A DNA stretch of 62,907 nt, the filler included, from Pseudomonadota bacterium (GTDB taxonomy: Bacteria > Bdellovibrionota_F > JAHFAK01 > JBDREC01): NCBI GenBank assembly GCA_043820105.1. It is 6 parts of 6 records of this genome, joined end to end, with 100 filler letters (N's around TTAATTAATTAA, not from the genome) between each part and the next. Parts side by side here need not be neighbours in the genome. Positions count along the whole stretch, not along the records: positions 22,061 to 39,398 come from JBDREC010000005.1; 5 more parts are not named here. One strand, written 5' to 3'. Made by a program: the position numbers and the translations under genes. Below are positions 27,460-42,504 of this stretch, piece after piece. A model generated the notes under the pieces. That model searched no databases, was not told the DNA's origin, and saw only the letters and a list, made by a program, of their open reading frames with translations. The number at the start of each line of letters is the position of its first letter. Within the stretch, counting starts at the first letter, position 1.

Positions 27460-28464
27460 CTACAGGCTTTTCCCAACCAATTCAGTTAAATCAACCATTC
27501 TAACAGAATATCCCATTTCATTATCATACCAGCTCATGACTTTAACTGTATTTCCATTTGAAACATAGGTTGTACCAGAATCATAAATTGATGATAAGTG
27601 TGATCCATTAAAATCAATAGAAACCAGGCTTTCATCAGAATATCCTAAATAACCTTTAAGTTCACCTTCAGCTGCTTCTTTAAAAGCTGCATTTACTTGA
27701 TCAACTGTTACATCTTTTTCAAGCACAGCAACAAAGTCTACAACAGAAACGTTTGGAGTTGGAACTCTCATTGCTAATCCATCAATTTTTCCTTTCATTT
27801 CTGGAATTACAAGCCCAACAGCTTTAGCTGCACCAGTTGTTGTTGGAATCATTGAAATAGCAGCAGCTCTTGCTCTTCTTATATCACTATGTGGAAAATC
27901 AAGAATTCTTTGATCATTTGTATAGGCATGAATTGTTGTCATTAAACCATTTTTAATACCAAAATTATTGTGCAAAACTTTAACAACAGGTGCCAAACAG
28001 TTAGTTGTACAAGATGCGTTAGAAATAATATGATGTTTTTCAGGATCATAAAGCTCATCATTAACACCAAGAACAATAGTTATATCTGGGTCTTTAGCAG
28101 GAGCTGAAATCAATACCTTTTTAGCGCCAGCATCAATATGTTTTTGACAAGTTGCCTGATCTCTAAAAAGCCCAGTAGATTCACACACAATGGAAACTCC
28201 AAGCTCAGCCCATGGCAATTCAGCAGGATCTTTTTGTGCGAAAATCTTAATTTCTTTTCCATTAACAATAATACTGTTTGCTGTGTGATCAACCGTGCCA
28301 TTAAACCTACCATGAACAGAATCATATTTAAACAAATGTGCAAGTGTTTTTGAATCAGTCAGATCATTAATAGCAACAACATTAACATCTGCTCTTGTCA
28401 TAGCAACTCTTAAATAAGCTCTGCCAATTCTACCAAATCCATTAATAGCAACATTAATACTCAT
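27460..28464 (-). CDS. gap: Glyceraldehyde-3-phosphate dehydrogenase (type I)
   Basis: [26 protein letters not shown]. Confidence 0.98.
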
Positions 28465-28812: not shown

Positions 28813-28916
28813 AAATCAGGCAAGGTGCCCACCTTTTTTCCTTGTAATTTATTTTGTCTTTTTATACTCATATTAGCTCCAAACGCATTAAATCGTTCTT
28901 TATTAGGAGGTATTTT

Positions 28917-30221
28917 ATGTCTTTAAAGGAAAAATTCGCTGCCAAGATCGATCCAGTCCGAGATGAAATAAAGTCAATATTAAAAGAAAATGGAGATAAA
29001 GTAATAAGTGAAGTTACTTTAGCTCAAGCTTATGGCGGAATGAGGGGAGTTAAATGCATGGTTACTGAAACCTCATCTGTGGACCCAAATGAGGGAATTA
29101 GATTTAGAGGATATACAATACCTGAACTTAGAGAAAAACTTCCTAAAGCAAAAGGAAAAGAAGAACCCTTGCCAGAAGGTGTTTTTTATCTTCTATTAAT
29201 GGGTGAATTGCCATCTGAAGATGATGTTTCAGAACTTTCTTCTGAATGGAATAAAAGAAATGAAATTCCAAGCTACCTTTGGACAATGCTTGATAATCTT
29301 CCCAGGGAATGTCACCCAATGACTCAATTTTCACTGGCTATTTTAGCACTTCAACAAGAATCAGTTTTTACAAAACAATATAGAGCTGGTATTAATAAAA
29401 AAGATTACTGGGATCCCTGCTATGAAGATGTTATGAATATTTTAGCTAAACTTCCTAGAATCGCTGCCTATATTTACCAAAGAAGTTATAAAGAAGGAAA
29501 GAAAATTGACCCTGATAAAAATCTAGATTGGTCTGGAAACCTGGCTCAAATGATGGGAATCGAGGGTGATAGCTTTAAAGAACTAATGAGGCTATATATG
29601 GTTCTTCATAGTGATCATGAAGGCGGAAATGTTTCTGCTCATGCTACACACCTAGTAGGCTCTGCATTGTCTGATCCTTACTATTCCCTATCATCCGGAA
29701 TCAATGGGCTTGCTGGCCCACTTCACGGCCTAGCCAACCAAGAGGTTTTGAGATGGATTATTGATACAAAAAATAAAATTCAACAAAAAGGCGGCGGTGA
29801 AATAACACCTAATCTACTCAGAGAATTTTGCTGGGACACCCTAAAAGGTGGACAAGTTATTCCAGGATACGGACATGCAGTCCTTCGAAAAACTGATCCT
29901 AGATTCGCTGCCTTATTAGAATTTGGTAAAAAACACTGTCCAAATGATGAGATATATAAAGTAGTAGAAATGCTTTATGATATTGTTCCAGACGTATTAA
30001 TGGAACATGGAAAAGCACAGAATCCTTGGCCAAATGTTGATGCAGGATCAGGCTGCTTACTTGTTAATTTTGGGATGAGTGAATATGATTTCTACACAGT
30101 ACTTTTTGGTGTTTCAAGGGCAATTGGTGTTTTATCATCCCTAATTTGGGATAGAGCCCTTGGCCTTCCAATTGAAAGACCAAAATCTGTCACCTCTGAA
30201 TGGGTAAAAACTCAAATCTAA
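28917..30221 (+). CDS. gltA: Citrate synthase, eukaryotic type
   Basis: AYGGMRG, PLPEG, HSDHEGGNVSAH, GLAGPLHGLANQEV, PGYGHAVLRKTDPR, NPWPNVDA, PIERPKS; AGGAGG RBS before 28917. Confidence 0.95.
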   Translation: MSLKEKFAAKIDPVRDEIKSILKENGDKVISEVTLAQAYGGMRGVKCMVTETSSVDPNEGIRFRGYTIPELREKLPKAKGKEEPLPEGVFYLLLMGELPSEDDVSELSSEWNKRNEIPSYLWTMLDNLPRECHPMTQFSLAILALQQESVFTKQYRAGINKKDYWDPCYEDVMNILAKLPRIAAYIYQRSYKEGKKIDPDKNLDWSGNLAQMMGIEGDSFKELMRLYMVLHSDHEGGNVSAHATHLVGSALSDPYYSLSSGINGLAGPLHGLANQEVLRWIIDTKNKIQQKGGGEITPNLLREFCWDTLKGGQVIPGYGHAVLRKTDPRFAALLEFGKKHCPNDEIYKVVEMLYDIVPDVLMEHGKAQNPWPNVDAGSGCLLVNFGMSEYDFYTVLFGVSRAIGVLSSLIWDRALGLPIERPKSVTSEWVKTQI

Positions 30222-30384: not shown

Positions 30385-31155
30385 ATGAAAAACTCACTAG
30401 GAAGAATTTATAGTCTCATCCTATTCTTAATCGCACTTTTAATCTTTTCTTTATCAGGACAAAATTTGTTTGCAAATCCTAACCCATATGTACATCAAGG
30501 ATTTTCAGGAAGAGACAATTACACACCCGCCCCATCATCAATATTTCAAGCAAAAGAATCTTGTGAAGAACAAAGAGCTGGTATTTTTACACCTATCAAT
30601 GTCCAAGGAATGCCATATCCAGATGAAGTTCCAATATCATTATTTTTAAAAAGTAAACTTCCGGAAATGGATCAAGATTGTAGAAAAGAGACATTGAAAT
30701 ATATAAAAAAGCTTTTAAGCGAAAAAAAATGGTCAAAAGATGGTCAGCTTCTTGATTATTGTGAATATAATTATTTTGGAGATCCCACTATGGCATTTAC
30801 ATGTAGTCAATATATTAGCATAATTGACAATGAACTTTCAGGAAAAAATCCAATTGCAGATCAAATAAGACAAGCAATGAACAGAGATGTTCAAGAATAT
30901 CAAAGTACAAGGCAAGAAAGAAAAAAGCCTTGTGGAAATAGCTTAGTTGTTATAGAAACCCAAGAAAATGCTGAAGAAATTGCACAACTAGACCCTGAAA
31001 CCATGGAAATGCTTAAAGCAATCGCTGAAGCTGAAACAATTGGACTTAAACTTCAGCAAAATGGTGCCCCTGAAAAAGCCAAAGAATATTTAGACCTAGC
31101 AAATCTTTTAAGAGAAACACTTGGAATGTCCCCAGAAATTTATGAGGACATATAA
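30385..31155 (+). CDS. Hypothetical exported protein
   Basis: Signal peptide after Met at 30385; no family recognised. Confidence 0.7.
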   Translation: MKNSLGRIYSLILFLIALLIFSLSGQNLFANPNPYVHQGFSGRDNYTPAPSSIFQAKESCEEQRAGIFTPINVQGMPYPDEVPISLFLKSKLPEMDQDCRKETLKYIKKLLSEKKWSKDGQLLDYCEYNYFGDPTMAFTCSQYISIIDNELSGKNPIADQIRQAMNRDVQEYQSTRQERKKPCGNSLVVIETQENAEEIAQLDPETMEMLKAIAEAETIGLKLQQNGAPEKAKEYLDLANLLRETLGMSPEIYEDI

Positions 31156-33071
31156 TTCAATAAGCCACCAGCTTTAAGGATATCTATCTGTCTATTGCTT
31201 AATTTGTAAGCAAGTTTTAGCTCTGAATTTTTTGTAATATTTTTTGCAAGTACATTTTCTGAATTATCAATATAGGAAAAAATATTTTCTATTTCTATTA
31301 CGTCTTCCATATCAATATTTTCATAATCTTCTTGATTTACAAAGAATAGAGGAAATATTCCAAAGTTAATTAAATTAGCTGTATGGATTCTTTCAGCTGA
31401 TTTTGCAAGGAGGACTGAAATTCCAAGATACTTTGGACAAATTGCAGCATGTTCTCTGCTTGATCCTTGACCATAACTTTCAGAAGCAACAATGATATTA
31501 TCTACTCCCTTACTTTTGTTCATTAAAGCTTTGGAAGCAAAGTGTTCATCTAAAGTTTCAAAAACATATGTAGCATACTTTGGAATATTTGATCTGTATT
31601 TTAACCTCGCGCCAGCAGGCATAATATGATCAGTGGTAATCTTATCACCAACTTTTATCAAAACAGCTCCAGCAATATTGCCAGTAGGTTTTTCAATTTG
31701 CAAAGGATCACCAATATTAGGGCCTCTGGATATTTTTATATTTTCTGGATTCTCAGAAGGTTTTAAAATCATAGAATCATCAATTAAAAATTTATGTGGC
31801 ATTTGAAAATCAGGATATTCCATTTCAAGATCTCTTGGATCAAAGAATTCTCCTTTTAAAGCACAAGCCACAGCAGTTTCGGTTGAAACTAAATAAATGC
31901 CGGCTGATTTTGTTCCACTTCTTCCAAAGAAATTTCTATTATTAGTTCTTACAGAAATACTATTGGTTTTAGGCGCTTGACCATTACCAATGCAAAATCC
32001 ACAAGTAGCTTCTAATATTCTAGCGCCAGATTTTATTATGTCTGAAAGGTGGACACTTTCGGAAATCATTTGTAAAACTTGCTTTGATCCAGGAGCCATT
32101 CCAAAAGATACCTCTTCACTAACTTTTTTCCCCTTTAGCATTGATGCAGTAATGATCCAATCTCTATATGAAGAATTTGTACAACTTCCAATAAGTATTT
32201 GATCAATCTTTTTTCCCTTTAGCTCATTAACTTCAACAACATTATCAGGACTATGTGGACATGCAACCATTGGTACTATTTTTGAAAGATCAAGATCTAT
32301 TACTTTATAATACTGGGCGTCATCATCCGCTGATAATTCCGTAAAATCCTCACCTCTTCCCTGAGCTAGTAGAAAATCTTTGGTAATTTCGTCACTTGGA
32401 AACAATGAAGTTGTAACACCGAGTTCTGCGCCCATGTTTGTAATTGTGGCTCTTTCTGGAACAGATAAAGTTTTAACACCAGCACCAGAATATTCAACTA
32501 CACATCCAACATTTCCTTTTGTTGTAAGCATCTTTAACACAGTTAAAATAATATCTTTTGCCGCGACCCAAGGAGATAATTTTCCAATTAAATTTATTTT
32601 GATAACCTTTGGACAAGTTAAATAAAAAGGTCCTCCTGCCATAGCAACAGCTATATCAAGACCGCCTGCCCCAATGGCTATCATTCCAATTCCACCACCA
32701 GTTGGAGTATGGCTGTCAGATCCAAGCAAGGTAAGGCCAGGTTTTCCGAAACGCTCTAAATGAACTTGATGACAAATTCCATTTCCAGCTTTTGAATAAA
32801 GAACACCATATTTTGCAGCTACATCTTTTAAATAGACATGATCATCTGCATTTTCAAAACCATCTTGTAAGGTATTGTGATCAACATAACTCACGGAAAG
32901 CTCAGTTTTAACTTTAGAAATATTCATTGATTCAAATTGCAAATAAGCCATTGTACCTGTTGCATCTTGTGTAAGAGTTTGATCAATTTTTATTCCGATT
33001 TCTTCGCCTTCTCTTAAATCACCATCTTGTAGGTGAGCCTTAAGTATTTTATAGCATAGATTGTCAGGCAT
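31140..33071 (-). CDS. Aconitate hydratase (short ~640-aa type)
   Basis: TQDATGT, GSDSHT, IGSCTNSS, CGFCIG, TTDHIMP, YGQGSSREHAA. Confidence 0.93.
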   Translation of the reverse strand: MPDNLCYKILKAHLQDGDLREGEEIGIKIDQTLTQDATGTMAYLQFESMNISKVKTELSVSYVDHNTLQDGFENADDHVYLKDVAAKYGVLYSKAGNGICHQVHLERFGKPGLTLLGSDSHTPTGGGIGMIAIGAGGLDIAVAMAGGPFYLTCPKVIKINLIGKLSPWVAAKDIILTVLKMLTTKGNVGCVVEYSGAGVKTLSVPERATITNMGAELGVTTSLFPSDEITKDFLLAQGRGEDFTELSADDDAQYYKVIDLDLSKIVPMVACPHSPDNVVEVNELKGKKIDQILIGSCTNSSYRDWIITASMLKGKKVSEEVSFGMAPGSKQVLQMISESVHLSDIIKSGARILEATCGFCIGNGQAPKTNSISVRTNNRNFFGRSGTKSAGIYLVSTETAVACALKGEFFDPRDLEMEYPDFQMPHKFLIDDSMILKPSENPENIKISRGPNIGDPLQIEKPTGNIAGAVLIKVGDKITTDHIMPAGARLKYRSNIPKYATYVFETLDEHFASKALMNKSKGVDNIIVASESYGQGSSREHAAICPKYLGISVLLAKSAERIHTANLINFGIFPLFFVNQEDYENIDMEDVIEIENIFSYIDNSENVLAKNITKNSELKLAYKLSNRQIDILKAGGLLNYMSS

Positions 33072-35971: not shown

Positions 35972-37087
35972 ATGATGGCTAAGATTTTCAATTCAAGAAG
36001 TCTAATTATTATCCTTTCAATTTTTATTTTTTTAAATTCTAAAGTTTATACAAATAATTATGATAATCAATTTAGTGCTGATAATCAGGACTGGGATGAA
36101 GATGACGATTGGGAAGAAGATGATAATTGGGAGAAAGTAGATCAGAAAGATGAACTAGATAAGGGAAGAAGGTCATATAAGAACAAAAGATATCAAAAAC
36201 TTTCTAAAGATATTTCATTCCAAATATTCACAGGGTATCCCATCTTAAACTCTACAATTAGCCCACAGGAGCTTACAAATGACGAAGAAACTGATATAAA
36301 CTGGGATCCAAATTCTATGTTCACCCTTGGTATAGCAGGGTCATATAAGGGCATTGGATTATCTTTAGAATTCAACATCCCAAACAGTGCACGTGATGAA
36401 ACTCTATATGGGAATACAGATTATTGGGATCTTCAATTTCACTATTTTCATAGATATTTTGGTGTGGATTTATTTTATCAAACCTATAGTGGTTTTTATT
36501 TAGATAATCCGGCTGACTTTGATTCAAGCTGGGAAGAAGGCGATGCCTTTACTCAAAACTCCACTATGCATATGTTCACAACTGGAGCTAACCTTTATTA
36601 TATTCATTCTGAGAAATTTTCAATTAAAGCAGCTTATGAGCAATCAGAAAGACAGATGAAAAGTGGAGGTTCTTTTTTATTAATGTTTTCAAATCATCTC
36701 CTTACCATTAGCAATCCAACATCCCTGATTCCTGAAAATCAACAAGAATACTATGGTGATGAGGCATCCTTTTCAGGTGGCAGCTTTTTTACTTCCTCTT
36801 TAGCCCCAGGCTATGGCCATATGTTTGTGCATGACATTCTATACTTTGCACCAATTGCATTTTTAGGTGGAGGTGTGCAATTTCAAAAATATGACCTGGA
36901 TTCTGGTAGAATTCAAAAAATAAAGGGAGCATTCAAGTTTAATCCTAATTTTTCACTTGGATTAAATGGAGAAAAGTTTTTTACTGGGCTTACAGTTTTA
37001 ACAAACATGAATTACATTACTTTGGAGCAAGCAGATATACTTTCAATGTCATTTTATATGAAGTTATATGTTGGAATGAGGTTTTAA
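35972..37087 (+). CDS. DUF4421-like outer-membrane protein
   Basis: Signal peptide; YQTYSGFY, KFSIKAAY.QSERQ.KSGGS, C-terminal GMRF. Confidence 0.7.
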   Translation: MMAKIFNSRSLIIILSIFIFLNSKVYTNNYDNQFSADNQDWDEDDDWEEDDNWEKVDQKDELDKGRRSYKNKRYQKLSKDISFQIFTGYPILNSTISPQELTNDEETDINWDPNSMFTLGIAGSYKGIGLSLEFNIPNSARDETLYGNTDYWDLQFHYFHRYFGVDLFYQTYSGFYLDNPADFDSSWEEGDAFTQNSTMHMFTTGANLYYIHSEKFSIKAAYEQSERQMKSGGSFLLMFSNHLLTISNPTSLIPENQQEYYGDEASFSGGSFFTSSLAPGYGHMFVHDILYFAPIAFLGGGVQFQKYDLDSGRIQKIKGAFKFNPNFSLGLNGEKFFTGLTVLTNMNYITLEQADILSMSFYMKLYVGMRF

Positions 37088-37207: not shown

Positions 37208-37693
37208 ATGATGGAAATTACTTTTATTTTTATGGTTGGGTTAATTGTGGGCTTAGTTGTTGCTAGATTTACTATTGGCTATAATTTTGTAACAAAAAGC
37301 AAATTTAATAAACTTAATGAAACTATGAATGATTATAAAAGAGAAATTGAAATAAAAGATAGGTTCTTTAATTCACTTAAAGGAGAAGTATCAAGCTCAG
37401 CTAAAGAACTTTCAACTCAAGGTGATAAGGTTTATGAAAAATTCCTTATGCTAACTGATAATCTTACCGAAATCGGTGATTACATTGAGCTTATGAAAAA
37501 ATCATATGATTCCATTATGACAAAATTCACAACTTCAGACATCAAAGACGATACAATCATTCAGAAAATGCAAAAAATTAAAGAGCTTTCTTTAAAGGTA
37601 AATATGGAAATTCCTCCAGAATTTAAAAACCCTGAAGATGAATATATTACTCTTGATGAACGCAATGATAACTTTAGAGAAATAAATATTTAA
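37208..37693 (+). CDS. Hypothetical membrane-anchored coiled-coil protein
   Basis: N-terminal TM helix, AAGGAG RBS. Confidence 0.7.
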   Translation: MMEITFIFMVGLIVGLVVARFTIGYNFVTKSKFNKLNETMNDYKREIEIKDRFFNSLKGEVSSSAKELSTQGDKVYEKFLMLTDNLTEIGDYIELMKKSYDSIMTKFTTSDIKDDTIIQKMQKIKELSLKVNMEIPPEFKNPEDEYITLDERNDNFREINI

Positions 37694-37795: not shown

Positions 37796-39139
37796 ATGCC
37801 TAATTTTAAACATGTAAATATTCCAGAAGGTGACTTAATAAAAATTGAAAATGGCAAACCACTTGTAGGAAACAAACCGATAATTGGCTTATTAAGAGGT
37901 GATGGCATTGGCCTTGATATTGCTCCAGTAATGCAAGACGTTGTAGAAGCTTCCGTAAACAAAGCGTATAATGGTGAAAAAGCAATTGCCTGGGCGCCTA
38001 TTTATATTGGATTAGAAGGTCTTCAAAAATATAGTGAAGTTTTACCTAATGAAGCAATTGAAGCTATTCAATATGTGAAAGTTGCAATCAAGGGTCCATT
38101 TACGACTCCAATTGGTGAAGAAACACATGTTTGTTTACATTGTGCTCACCAACAATATCATGATGGTGTTTGCGATAAATGTGGAAAAGATGATGGTGTT
38201 GCAGAAAGATTTAGATCAATTAATGTTGGCTTAAGACAGAAAATGGATCTTTATGCTTGTGTTAGACCAATTAGATACATTGAAGGTGTTCCTTCTCCAA
38301 ACAAATATGCAAATAAAGTAAATTTCGTCATTTTCAGAGAAAACATTGAAGATGTCTATGCAGGTCATGACTTTGAAAAAGGTTCAGAAACAGCACTGGC
38401 AATTATTGAATTAATTAAGGAAAAAACTGGACGTCAAATTAGATTAGATTCTGGAATTGGGGTTAAACCAATCTCAGTTTTTGGTTCAAAAAGATTAATT
38501 AAAAAAGCAATTCAATGGGCAATCAGTCAAAACCTTCCTTCAGTAACCCTAGTCCATAAAGGTAATATCATGAAGTTTACAGAAGGTTCTTTTGCAAAAT
38601 ATGGCTATGAGCTGGCTGAAGATGAATTTAAAGATTATTTTATTTCCGAAAAAACATTATGGGATAACTTTGATGGAAAAATGCCAGAAGGAAAACACTT
38701 AATCAAAGATAGAATCGCGGATTCAATTTTCCAACAAATACAAACAAGACCTGAAGAATATTCTGTGCTTGCTCTCCCAAATCTAAATGGTGATTATTTG
38801 TCTGATGCAGCGATTGCCTTAGTTGGTGGACTGGGCCTTGGACCTGGTGCTAATATCGGCGACGAAGTCGCTTTGTTTGAAGCAACTCATGGAACAGCTC
38901 CTAAATATACAGGAATGGACAAAGTCAATCCTGGTTCCTTAATACTTTCCGCAGTTATGATGCTAAATCACATGGGCTGGAATGAAGCCGCTGATCTAAT
39001 CATAAAAGGTCTTGAACAATCAATCAAAGACGGTCATGTAACATACGACCTTGCTCGCCTAATGAAGGCAGAAGGCAGAGAAGACGTAACAGAAGTTTCT
39101 TGTTCTGGATTTGGAAAAGCGATAATTAATCGAATGTAG
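37796..39139 (+). CDS. icd: NADP-type isocitrate dehydrogenase with a 4-Cys insertion
   Basis: GDGIG, AIKGP.TTP, RS.NV, FREN.ED.YAG, VHKGNIMKFTEG, NLNGDYLSD, EATHGTAPKY. Confidence 0.96.
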   Translation: MPNFKHVNIPEGDLIKIENGKPLVGNKPIIGLLRGDGIGLDIAPVMQDVVEASVNKAYNGEKAIAWAPIYIGLEGLQKYSEVLPNEAIEAIQYVKVAIKGPFTTPIGEETHVCLHCAHQQYHDGVCDKCGKDDGVAERFRSINVGLRQKMDLYACVRPIRYIEGVPSPNKYANKVNFVIFRENIEDVYAGHDFEKGSETALAIIELIKEKTGRQIRLDSGIGVKPISVFGSKRLIKKAIQWAISQNLPSVTLVHKGNIMKFTEGSFAKYGYELAEDEFKDYFISEKTLWDNFDGKMPEGKHLIKDRIADSIFQQIQTRPEEYSVLALPNLNGDYLSDAAIALVGGLGLGPGANIGDEVALFEATHGTAPKYTGMDKVNPGSLILSAVMMLNHMGWNEAADLIIKGLEQSIKDGHVTYDLARLMKAEGREDVTEVSCSGFGKAIINRM

Positions 39140-39398: not shown

Positions 39399-39498
39399 NN
39401 NNNNNNNNNNNNNNNNNNNNNNNNNNNNNNNNNNNNNNNNNNTTAATTAATTAANNNNNNNNNNNNNNNNNNNNNNNNNNNNNNNNNNNNNNNNNNNN
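39399..39498. other. Artificial contig linker
   Basis: N44-TTAATTAATTAA-N44. Confidence 0.98.
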
Positions 39499-39752
39499 AT
39501 GTTTCCTTAAACATTTATGAAGTGTCTATGTTTTCGGTTTATATTGCATCTGCGAATAAGCAAAATAAAGGTATATTAACAGGATTCCATAAATTTATTA
39601 ATATGTCTTTTATGCTGATTGGGACTGTCTTTTATATATTTATATCTGATTTTCTTCCAATATCTATAATCGCATTGGTTCCTGCAGTAATATTGATTAT
39701 TTCCGTATCTTATCTAATCTTAAATAGAAAGAAATTTTATGAAACAAGCTAG
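39499..39752 (+). CDS. Membrane protein, 5' partial
   Basis: Hydrophobic C-terminal fragment overlapping the kinase start. Confidence 0.5.
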
Positions 39753-42504
39753 AATAAATACTAGAATATTTTTATTTTTGATTATTATGTCTATATTGTT
39801 AGGGATTTTCTTGTTTGCTTATAGCTATTTTTTATCAAAAAAACATGTTAAAAGTATTTTTATAGAGGATAAAAGCAAATATTGTAAGCAAATTGCAAGG
39901 CTTATTGAGCCATACTTGAAAACACATAATTATTTTGAACTTTCTAAAATAGCAAATCATGTATTTGATGAAAATATTATGGAATATATTGCTGTTTTTG
40001 ACAATGATGGTAAATTAATAACACTTCATCCTCAAAAAATACAGGATAAAATAAATTCAAATCTAAAACATAAAAATTTAAATTATTTTATCGAATTAAA
40101 TGACAGAATAACATTTTATAATATAATTAAGGATAGAAATGAAAATTTATGGGGTAATCTACAGATATCATACTCAGCAAATTCTATTGAACTAGTAATA
40201 CTTAATAATCTTTTGCCTTTTCTTGTTGCATTAGGTTGTTTTATTTTTATATGGGTGATTTATTTAACATATTATACTAAATCAATTGTTAGACCTTTAA
40301 TAAATTTTATAGATAATCTTGAAGCAGTATCGAAGAAATGGCCAATTACACATGATAAATTTAGAAAAGATATTTTCCTGCCAAAATCTACCAAGGAAGT
40401 AAATGTAATATCTTGTGTTTTAAAAAATTCATTGGAAAATATTATTACTCTTGAAAAGCAGGCAAAAAAAAATGAACAGTTAGCAGCAATTGGTCAAACC
40501 ACGGCCGCTCTAGCCCATGACATTCGTAAACCTTTTACTAGCATTAAATCAATGTTGTCTATGATTGATAAATATAAAGAAGATCCAGAATTTTTATCAA
40601 AAGCTAAATCAACAGTTAATCAGACAATAGTTCATGTTGAAAAAATGATTTCAGATATTTTGGACTTTTCAAGAGAAGTGAAAGTAGAAGTAAGGCCTGA
40701 GGCGATAGTTAACATTATTGACTTTGCCATTAGATACACCTCACAGGCATTTAAAGATTTATCACTAAAGTTTGATTATAGATTAGAAAGCAAGTTTAAA
40801 CCTCTGTGTGATGATGAAAGAATGGTTAGAGTCTTTGGAAATATTATTGGTAATGCAATCGAGGCTATTGGTAAGAAAAAAAATGCCATTATTTGGGTTT
40901 ATACAAAAGAAATAATAAAAGATGATAGAACATTTGTTGAAATTACCATTGGAAATAATGGGCCGTGTTTTACAGATGAGGATATCCCCAGCCTATTTAA
41001 ATCGTTTTTTACTAAAGGGAAGAAACGAGGAACTGGTTTAGGGCTTGCTTCTGTGCAAAAGATTGTGCTTTTGCATAATGGAACTATAGATGCAAGAAAT
41101 GTAAAAGATAATAATGGAGTTGAGTTTGTCATATGTTTGCCAGCTTCAAAAGAAATTGAATATCATAAAACACATTATTTGCCTCAAGATATTAATGAAA
41201 TATTGATTGCTCATTATGTCCCTAAAGAAGATGATTATGATGCTAAGCTTAATTTCTTATCAAAGCAAAAAAATATAAAAGTTGCTTTGCTAGAAGACGA
41301 AACCCTATATAGGGCTTTTGTTAGAAACACCATAAAAAATAATGAAATTTTAAGTAATCTAATCAGCCTTTATGATGTTAATAATGTTAATGATTGTATA
41401 AAATTAATTGAAAAAGAAAATGTGGATTTCGCTATTGTTGATATTGATTTGAATGAAGAAAAAAATGGTTACGATTTTCTGAAAGAAGTAAGAGTAAAAA
41501 ACATTAACCTCATTTCAATGGTGCACTCTAATAGGTATTTGGATGAAGAAATACAGCAAGCTTATGACCTTGGAGCAAAAGCTTATGCTAGTAAGCCACT
41601 CAGCATTGAACAGCTTTCAGATTTCTTATTTAAAAGTTTAAACAAAGATACATCATATGATAATAAAAATATTAGAACAGTAAAGCTTGAAGTTGATAAA
41701 CCGGAATTATCTATTTTTATTGCCGATGACAATCTTATTATGAGAGACTACCTACATTCTATATTATTGAAAGTTTTAACACCATATAAATGCCACTTTT
41801 ATAAATTTGAATGTCCCCATGAGGTTTTAGCAAACTTTGATAAAAAGAAACCTGATATTGTCGTGAGTGATAACCATTATGCTGCTTCAGTTGAACTTTT
41901 AGGAGAAGATTTGCTTGTGAAGTTAAGAGATAAGGACAATCACGTTCTTTTATATTTGTGTTCTGATTTAAGTGAAGAGGAACTAAAAGAAAAATGCTTA
42001 AAAAGCAAAGCTAATGGATATTTTGATCCAACAGTGACTACAATTAAACTAAAAACATTGGTGATAAAGCAGATTGAGGATTATTTAGATAAGAAAATAT
42101 CAAGGGAGAGTGATGATAACCATGCAATTTCTAAATATCTTCATGATATAAATAAGCCCATCTTGAATACAGCGATTGCTTGTAAAATGATGATTACAGA
42201 GAAATCAACAAAGGATAAAGAGTTGATGGATAAACAGTTGGCAGAAATAAAAAAAGTTTACACCAATTCTAAAGATGTTTTTGAAAAAGATAAAGTGTTA
42301 TTTAAAAAGCATAAAAAGATATTGGGTGATGACTTAAAAAAACACTATGAGGAACAATTTCAATTTATAGAAACCATTTTTGAAAAACCAAATTCAGAAA
42401 ATTTTTTCGTAGATAATAACCTTAAAGAGACATTTGAAAAAGTGAATGCGTTTTTAGATAAGAATAAAAATTTAAATACACTTATAAGGAAAAATATAAA
42501 TTGA
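39739..42504 (+). CDS. Hybrid sensor histidine kinase with two receiver domains
   Basis: Two TM helices; LAHDIRKP H-box; NIIGNA, GNNGP, FFTKGK..GTGLGL; receivers LLEDE...IVDIDL...KP and IADDN...VSDNH. Confidence 0.88.
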   Translation: MKQARINTRIFLFLIIMSILLGIFLFAYSYFLSKKHVKSIFIEDKSKYCKQIARLIEPYLKTHNYFELSKIANHVFDENIMEYIAVFDNDGKLITLHPQKIQDKINSNLKHKNLNYFIELNDRITFYNIIKDRNENLWGNLQISYSANSIELVILNNLLPFLVALGCFIFIWVIYLTYYTKSIVRPLINFIDNLEAVSKKWPITHDKFRKDIFLPKSTKEVNVISCVLKNSLENIITLEKQAKKNEQLAAIGQTTAALAHDIRKPFTSIKSMLSMIDKYKEDPEFLSKAKSTVNQTIVHVEKMISDILDFSREVKVEVRPEAIVNIIDFAIRYTSQAFKDLSLKFDYRLESKFKPLCDDERMVRVFGNIIGNAIEAIGKKKNAIIWVYTKEIIKDDRTFVEITIGNNGPCFTDEDIPSLFKSFFTKGKKRGTGLGLASVQKIVLLHNGTIDARNVKDNNGVEFVICLPASKEIEYHKTHYLPQDINEILIAHYVPKEDDYDAKLNFLSKQKNIKVALLEDETLYRAFVRNTIKNNEILSNLISLYDVNNVNDCIKLIEKENVDFAIVDIDLNEEKNGYDFLKEVRVKNINLISMVHSNRYLDEEIQQAYDLGAKAYASKPLSIEQLSDFLFKSLNKDTSYDNKNIRTVKLEVDKPELSIFIADDNLIMRDYLHSILLKVLTPYKCHFYKFECPHEVLANFDKKKPDIVVSDNHYAASVELLGEDLLVKLRDKDNHVLLYLCSDLSEEELKEKCLKSKANGYFDPTVTTIKLKTLVIKQIEDYLDKKISRESDDNHAISKYLHDINKPILNTAIACKMMITEKSTKDKELMDKQLAEIKKVYTNSKDVFEKDKVLFKKHKKILGDDLKKHYEEQFQFIETIFEKPNSENFFVDNNLKETFEKVNAFLDKNKNLNTLIRKNIN

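Follow-up and report, generated by a model that had tools for sequence, protein, structure and literature searches.

Isocitrate dehydrogenase (IDH) is among the best-studied of all enzymes, and its 'phosphorylation loop' is a textbook example of active-site regulation. What, then, could a cluster of four cysteines be doing in that loop, just ahead of the serine that is phosphorylated in Escherichia coli? This question is raised by a 62,907-nucleotide stretch of DNA (hereafter the window) from the assembly GCA_043820105.1 (Pseudomonadota bacterium), which contains a gene, icd, for an NADP-dependent IDH (NADP-IDH) with extra residues at exactly this position. In this study, we followed the insert and its four cysteines (Cys4) through sequence, genome and structure collections. 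It marks a well-supported, widespread and uncharacterised subfamily of IDH that is ordinary in its enzymology and carries an unusual, precisely placed and probably metal-binding module. The preliminary description of the window knew of no described example, and no account of a zinc-ribbon or Cys4 insert in any IDH was found in the full-text literature that we searched, subscription-only papers being outside its scope. Source annotations label the insert-bearing proteins merely 'isocitrate dehydrogenase', and the subfamily went unnoticed because annotation pipelines give it no label beyond NADP-IDH.

The enzyme and its insert

The icd gene occupies positions 37796..39139 of the window (stop codon included) on the plus strand and encodes a type-I homodimeric NADP-IDH of 447 amino acids (aa), an assignment drawn from Pfam, NCBIfam, the Protein Data Bank (PDB) and an AlphaFold2 model. 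PF00180 (Iso_dh; E 2.2e-75) is the sole Pfam family seen in the full-length protein. The NCBIfam model NF005425 (NADP-IDH) scores 510.9 bits and passes its cut-off of 490; TIGR00183 scores 558.1 bits, just below its cut-off of 567.3, with a match that is split in two by the insert. The best PDB sequence relative is 2iv0 (E 1.3e-131), and E. coli K-12 Icd (locus L101) is 54% identical (alignment A1). We take the catalytic and substrate-binding residues to be, in E. coli numbering, S113, N115, R119, R129, R153, Y160, K230, D283, D307 and D311, and those that specify NADP to be K344, Y345, V351, Y391 and R395. All of these positions are conserved between the two proteins in alignment A1, as are the NADP-specificity motifs HGTAPKY, KVNPGS and VTYDLARLM. 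The motifs RS[IV]N, FREN.ED, HKGNIMK and N[LF]NGDY recur in 119-121 of the 121 insert-clade members described below. The conserved specificity residues predict a preference for NADP as cofactor. Judged by its sequence, the enzyme is otherwise normal, and catalysis itself should be unchanged by the insert.

The insert spans 38117..38212 on the plus strand and comprises residues E108-F139, EETHVCLHCAHQQYHDGVCDKCGKDDGVAERF, between TTPIG and RSINV. It falls within the 'phosphorylation loop' (Cd loop), and its extent is given by the alignment, by its conserved length and sequence, and by the model. From G107 to R140 the protein has 34 residues where E. coli Icd has 5 (GGGIR), a net insertion of 29 (alignment A1). 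Its cysteines, C113, C116, C126 and C129, form the pattern CxxC-x9-CxxC, and it also contains four histidines, H111, H115, H118 and H122. The first knuckle, C113-L-H-C116, is encoded at 38132..38143 and the second, C126-D-K-C129, at 38171..38182, where it is followed by G130; between them lie the non-ligand residues Q119-Q120 (38150..38155). The insert ends two residues before Ser141 (38216..38218), the equivalent of E. coli Ser113 in alignment A1. All of these elements are on the plus strand. The preliminary description had reported such an insertion before the serine of an intact IDH, and its coordinates, its letters and its length of about 29 extra residues are confirmed.

A second mini-insert, of 4-5 residues near the C-terminus and including E426-G427-R428 (39071..39079, plus strand), accompanies the Cys4 insert throughout the clade. 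Its place is just after VTYDLARLM, the motif with the counterparts of E. coli Y391 and R395 (the NADP 2'-phosphate-binding Y/R motif). The mini-insert is present in 98-99% of 173 insert-clade sequences, whereas 67-70 of 80 plain IDHs have a gap there, and it is retained in both the distant representative P0121 and the Cys-less variants introduced below.

In its fold, its catalytic and NADP-specificity residues and its predicted dimer interface, the protein is the same as E. coli Icd and the other solved type-I IDHs (1ai2, 3icd, 2iv0, 3dms, 5m2e, 1hqs); it differs from them in having the 29-residue Cys4 insert and the C-terminal mini-insert of 4-5 residues. A search for PDB sequence relatives matched 79 chains, and all 60 that were listed are plain enzymes of the same superfamily. 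The three PDB alignments that we examined break at query residues 107 and 138/139, at the borders of the insert, and those three solved structures are therefore without it.

Conservation, distribution and descent

We scored 8000 homologue clusters; the best 120 listed are 77-82% identical to the query and 436-457 aa long, mostly 446-450. Together with the representative P0121 (62% identical), they make a set of 121, and every member carries G-x5-CxxC-x9-CxxC-x8-R[FY]RS[IV]NV. Among the best 150 entries of a library of representatives at 50% identity, the insert occurs only in P0121 and in two fragments (P0130 and P0224). The nearest insert-less representative in that library, P0122, is 54% identical and 589 aa long, having about 170 additional residues at its C-terminus (alignment A2). 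In P0121, HGTAPRRAG replaces HGTAPKY[TA]G (alignment A2). Because the equivalents of K344 and Y345, both presumed to specify NADP, are thus Arg, the cofactor preference of P0121 may differ.

The same picture emerges at the level of individual genes. From 136 genome loci, 97 distinct inserts were obtained, 95 of which are exactly CxxC-x9-CxxC with all four cysteines kept. In all 95 Cys4 forms, 30 residues separate TTP[IV]G from R[FY]RS (31 through that Arg), and these forms share the invariant positions E109, V112, C113, L114, C116, Q119, Q120, C126, C129 and D133, with G130 kept in 84. The cysteines singled out in the preliminary description have thus stood up to comparison with homologues, in all 121 clusters and in 95 of the 97 distinct inserts, and a pattern shared on this scale is far beyond chance. 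The four histidines named beside them are present in the window protein, but 'four His' is not a conserved feature of the subfamily because near-invariance is limited to H118 (92 of 95); position 111 has F or Y in 6 of the 95, and His is found at position 115 in 60 and at position 122 in 78. Across 173 clade members, the mean column entropy is 0.63 in the insert versus 0.62 in the other 415 columns, and this near-equality indicates that the insert is as constrained as the core of the enzyme.

Patterns from the insert region matched 176 stretches in a scan of species genomes, and 165 of these encode a relative; the insert is carried by about 165 species-level genomes. Among the matches listed (80 in each of two genome scans that overlap in records), all insert-bearing records are metagenome-assembled genomes (MAGs), and the remaining records are MAGs or named cyanobacteria. 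The carriers span more than 10 phylum labels, and the equal constraint on insert and core extends over host loci of 36-71% GC, or 31-71% across hosts. Of 54 full-length insert-bearing sequences, 22 are labelled Gemmatimonadota, 5 Planctomycetota, 5 Eisenbacteria, 3 Acidobacteriota, 3 Fibrobacterota, 2 Myxococcota, 2 Vulcanimicrobiota, and 1 each Hydrogenedentota, Krumholzibacteriota and Pseudomonadota; one has only the class label 'Deltaproteobacteria' and 8 are without a phylum label. In the ESM Atlas, the whole protein falls into an IDH cluster of its own with 130 members, in which Gemmatimonadota is the commonest phylum; the insert alone gave no usable match there.

To place the subfamily, we left out the insert columns and inferred a FastTree tree from 133 IDHs; the tree is unrooted and its sampling is biased. 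All 54 insert-bearing sequences form one clade with a support of 100. Only two changes of insert state are needed on the whole tree, which we interpret as one gain followed by one later loss of the Cys4 core, and the tree indicates that the insert subfamily has a single origin. Within the clade, the window protein is nearest to sequences labelled Gemmatimonadota (81% identity). Two reference genomes from the same order as the window encode plain IDHs that are 58-59% identical to the query, with the loops TTPIGEGFRSINV and TTPVGEGFRSINV, and the one same-class genome searched yielded no match to the query. A genome related only at the domain level (G018), on the other hand, has a 75%-identical insert form, and in the phylum of G041, which is labelled Gemmatimonadota, the insert region was matched in only 4 of 121 sampled genomes. 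The plain IDHs of same-order relatives, together with this patchy distribution, argue that the gene has moved horizontally, and by these comparisons the insert-bearing IDHs make up a patchily distributed, horizontally spread subfamily.

The nearest insert-less clade is that of cyanobacterial IDH, which appears as the sister group with a support of 99. We regard this relationship as tentative because of the quick method, the biased sampling and the unrooted tree. The cyanobacterial NADP-IDHs (NF005610/PRK07362 type) are 46-48% identical to the query and have a plain TTP[IV]GGGIRSLNV loop without Cys4; at 472-474 aa they are longer, through an extra segment elsewhere.

The later loss is seen in two loci, L067 and L072, from MAGs labelled Fibrobacteraceae. 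Their proteins are 72-73% identical to the query and nested in the insert clade, and their Cys4 core has been replaced. The 32-residue inserts (L067:4292-4435; L072:4097-4240) read EETHVCL-ATGKQGSREELIAKHH-CDPADITER, with a replacement segment that is unrelated to the Cys4 core and possibly helical. What has been kept is the stem (E108-L114 and [IV]TER-F-RS), Glu109, Q119, D133 and the first and last Cys. A compensated frameshift was ruled out as the source of this variant, as no alternative frame of L067 or L072 yields the Cys4 peptide. The retention of these features suggests that the enzyme can spare the metal site, but not an insert of such size with those residues. By its sequence, the insert of L067 and L072 would be a natural 'metal-free' counterpart of the module.

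Predicted fold and possible roles

In the AlphaFold2 model of the full-length protein (110-sequence alignment), the mean predicted local distance difference test score (pLDDT) is 95.5, with 87-92 for the blocks of the insert, and short strands are formed at residues 111-113, 119-120 and 135-137. The model matches IDH structures with a Foldseek TMt of 0.92-0.93. When residues 100-146 were folded alone (55-sequence alignment), the core had a pLDDT of 85-89 and the same strands. Since the isolated piece keeps both, the insert is predicted to be an autonomous mini-domain. A two-copy homodimer predicted by ESMFold2, with Zn included and unscored, scored 0.90 versus 0.00 for the best of 3 controls; among proteins of solved structure, 20 of 30 same-chain pairs and 1 of 23 single chains attain that mark. 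The runs agree in at least 95% of contacts, with a partner pLDDT of at least 93. As IDH dimers have already been solved, this pass may be memory and mainly shows likeness. The confident dimer interface includes residues 104-108, 141 and 144 at the base of the insert and none of 109-139, a pattern that, in the model, fits an outward-projecting module.

Nearly all of the top look-alikes of the isolated insert in Foldseek and VIA-align, weak as they are, proved to be Cys4 Zn or Fe modules. They include the LapB rubredoxin-like domain (root-mean-square deviation 1.5 Å over 33 columns), archaeal and eukaryotic ribosomal zinc ribbons, MCM zinc fingers, Nob1, Rpb12, Nop10, RanBP2/Nup153 zinc fingers, rubredoxin, rubrerythrin and the Zn lid of Bacillus adenylate kinase. 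The only Pfam family that the insert matches, weakly, is DZR_2 (double zinc ribbon; E 0.0086). With minimal two-knuckle ribbons (DZR_2, RanBP2/Nup153, ribosomal, Rpb12, Nob1, Nop10, LapB) it has in common the CxxC-x9-CxxC pattern, a length of about 30 residues and short beta strands; unlike them, it is embedded within the loop of an enzyme, forming neither a free domain nor a terminal module, and its scores stay below significance. The metal module proposed in the preliminary description is upheld to this extent: the sequence pattern and the predicted fold fit a small metal ribbon, most likely of Zn.

A working resemblance is offered by the Zn-binding LID of Gram-positive adenylate kinases (1zin, 5g3y, 4qbh), in which a small Cys-rich metal knuckle likewise sits in a mobile active-site element, again in an enzyme of central metabolism. 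The zinc of this lid has a structural role only. The Foldseek match between the two is weak (31% identity over 35 columns, E 1.5-2.5), and the enzyme and fold are unrelated and the knuckle spacing is different, so the resemblance is not one of family membership. According to one report, some bacteria have the Cys-X2-Cys-X16-Cys metal motif in the adenylate kinase lid and others lack it (PMC4141199). The occurrence of Cys4 and Cys-less forms of the IDH insert seems, by analogy, to resemble this pattern.

How might such a module act? A report on IDH structures describes AceK as regulating E. coli IDH at Ser113, an isocitrate ligand in the 'phosphorylation loop'; it also describes the equivalent Cd loop as disordered in the apo enzyme of S. 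tokodaii and as connecting the nicotinamide ribose with isocitrate in ternary complexes (PMC6313988). With moderate confidence, we favour the view that the insert is a structural zinc-ribbon scaffold or flap that stiffens or caps this loop. It would be a minimal two-knuckle Cys4 zinc ribbon of about 30 residues, most likely with one structural Zn2+ per subunit, spliced as a mini-domain into a normally flexible loop that leads into the isocitrate-binding Ser141. A beta-hairpin stem (111-113 and 135-137) would carry the knuckles outward from the mouth of the active-site cleft. The metal site would serve as a scaffold that fixes the invariant polar residues E109, Q119, Q120 and D133, together with R138, in place, the first four at the cleft mouth. 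The loop, which is mobile in plain IDHs and bridges the NADP ribose and isocitrate, would become stiffened or capped, as a rigid, metal-stapled hairpin within it should restrict its motion. We infer all three elements of this proposal, namely Zn as the metal, the scaffold or flap role, and the effect on loop dynamics. The Cys-less variants, in which the Cys4 core was lost while the length and the non-Cys invariants were kept, suggest that the metal site serves as scaffolding and is not what the module is for.

Several observations weigh against the scaffold proposal. In Foldseek, the isolated insert matched nothing at E 0.001 or better (best E 0.5), and in VIA-align only 37 of 48,161 chains reached a Z of at least 2, with a maximum of 3.4; such weak structural scores are, however, as expected of only about 35 residues. 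The DZR_2 match, at 16.3 bits against a cut-off of 27, is below the curated threshold, and AlphaFold2 may draw a knuckle merely on seeing CxxC...CxxC. Residues that are not named in the predicted dimer interface are only uncertain rather than proven free, and the 'flap' or 'cap' geometry is itself conjectural. The metal may be Fe instead of the predicted Zn. Finally, the invariance of the four cysteines in 95 of 97 inserts would be equally expected of a regulatory site.

This last point leads to the alternative that survives best, a thiol/zinc redox or metal switch, although we consider it unlikely. Oxidation of the cysteines or loss of Zn would unfold the mini-domain and thereby perturb the start of the Ser141 helix and the NADP/isocitrate loop. 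That IDH is a source of NADPH favours this idea; that most Cys4 ribbons are purely structural counts against it. On the switch hypothesis, the main NADPH-producing enzyme would be tuned by redox or metal status through an AceK-independent control of the same loop. The hypothesis draws on the position of the Cys4 site two residues from the regulatory and catalytic Ser, on the near-universal cysteines, and on the placement of the insert in the very loop that is regulated in E. coli (PMC6313988). It draws further on the lack of AceK, whose kinase family (PF06315) was not found in the assembly of the window (G000; 92.9% complete) or in any of five other insert-bearing genomes, 0 of 6 in all, with E. 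coli as a positive control. Isocitrate lyase was likewise not found in a search of the whole G000 assembly, which sets this organism further apart from the E. coli system. Two findings speak against a switch. L067 and L072 have lost the Cys4 core yet retain the insert and its non-Cys invariants, and no redox-related neighbour is conserved. In a survey that clustered the open reading frames (ORFs) across 63 insert-bearing loci, no neighbour was common to more than 5 loci once the clusters overlapping icd had been set aside; those larger clusters (of up to 46 loci) were judged to overlap icd from the coordinates of example members only. Were the switch real, it would amount to a kinase-free, independent solution to the control of IDH flux and NADPH, spread horizontally through many uncultured phyla, which we think improbable.

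Zinc ribbons commonly mediate contacts with proteins or nucleic acids, and the insert might accordingly be a docking handle, an exposed ribbon whose surface binds another macromolecule (for instance an enzyme that belongs to the TCA (tricarboxylic acid) cycle or consumes 2-oxoglutarate, a regulator, or nucleic acid) or serves the assembly of IDH into larger complexes. Lying outside the confident dimer interface, the insert is probably exposed in the model; the invariant polar Q119, Q120, D133 and E109 are not metal ligands; and ribosomal, polymerase, MCM and RanBP2 ribbons are among its look-alikes, albeit with weak scores. However, the survey of 63 loci gave no conserved gene neighbour and no partner candidate was identified, and horizontal spread into more than 10 phylum labels argues against a lineage-specific docking partner. 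We therefore rate docking as a minor possibility.

It is quite improbable that the insert is a functionally neutral passenger that a surface loop happens to accommodate. In favour of this reading, the loop of plain IDHs is flexible and exposed to solvent (PMC6313988), and the sequence of the tip has been replaced in two lineages. Against neutrality stand the insert entropy, which matches that of the core, the ten invariant positions, and a length that is fixed in all 95 Cys4 forms and across hosts of 31-71% GC.

Very improbable, in our judgement, is a role in electron transfer as an Fe(Cys)4 centre of the rubredoxin kind. Rubredoxin has two CxxCG knuckles, a long spacer and an aromatic core. 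The second knuckle of the insert does read CxxCG, and rubredoxin, rubrerythrin and the LapB rubredoxin-like domain are among the look-alikes. However, the first knuckle reads CLxCA, the spacer of 9 residues is far shorter, and no Pfam rubredoxin match to the insert was found at E up to 10. The structural matches are all weak (E at least 0.5), the protein contains no flavin or other redox partner domain, and the hydride transfer of IDH needs no electron carrier.

The shield against phosphorylation that the preliminary description proposed, by which the insert would sterically keep AceK or another kinase off Ser141, agrees with the placement directly before the Ser113 equivalent, but it is hardly credible given that AceK was found in none of the six insert-bearing genomes and that, with isocitrate lyase not found in G000, there is no glyoxylate-shunt branch point to control.

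Genomic setting and significance

No gene follows icd on its 17,338-base contig (22061-39398), after which an N spacer begins at 39399. The contigs of the window were joined by runs of N that surround the linker TTAATTAATTAA, a sequence with stop codons in every frame. Because of the join, the ORFs that flank 39399-39498 are not true neighbours; a hybrid histidine kinase at 39739-42504 sits on a different contig from icd. On the same contig as icd are genes for glyceraldehyde-3-phosphate dehydrogenase (GAPDH; 27460-28464, minus strand), citrate synthase (28854-30221, plus strand) and a short aconitase of 642 aa (31140-33071, minus strand). The closest relatives of this aconitase (54-74% identity) are scattered among Nitrospirota, Thermoplasmata, Syntrophia-like and other MAGs. 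The genes immediately upstream of icd encode a DUF4421 protein whose N-terminus resembles a signal peptide (35972-37087) and a protein of 161 aa that weakly matches the RmuC family (37208-37693). These two have no apparent link to icd and are not kept beside it in other genomes.

The window has a GC content of 31%, and GC at third codon positions (GC3) is 0.21 in icd and 0.06 in the insert. The low GC3 indicates that icd is fully adapted to an AT-rich host genome and does not come from a stray high-GC contig. The icd query has only one further match in G000, a 33%-identical paralogue, and no monomeric IDH was found in a search of the whole assembly. Given the TCA genes on the contig, the host-like composition, and an assembly that otherwise offers only the 33% paralogue and no monomeric IDH, icd is the working housekeeping IDH of the organism. 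Similarly, the insert-bearing gene is the only close IDH match in all five of the other insert-bearing genomes.

What the module means for the family depends on its role. If it is structural, the subfamily would be a clean natural experiment on the way in which a stiffened phosphorylation loop influences induced fit; if it is regulatory, it would represent a new mode of TCA and NADPH control. In either case, the Cys4 and Cys-less sister forms provide an immediate comparative pair for biochemistry, and the insert is a sharp marker with which to trace the horizontal transfer of a core metabolic gene.

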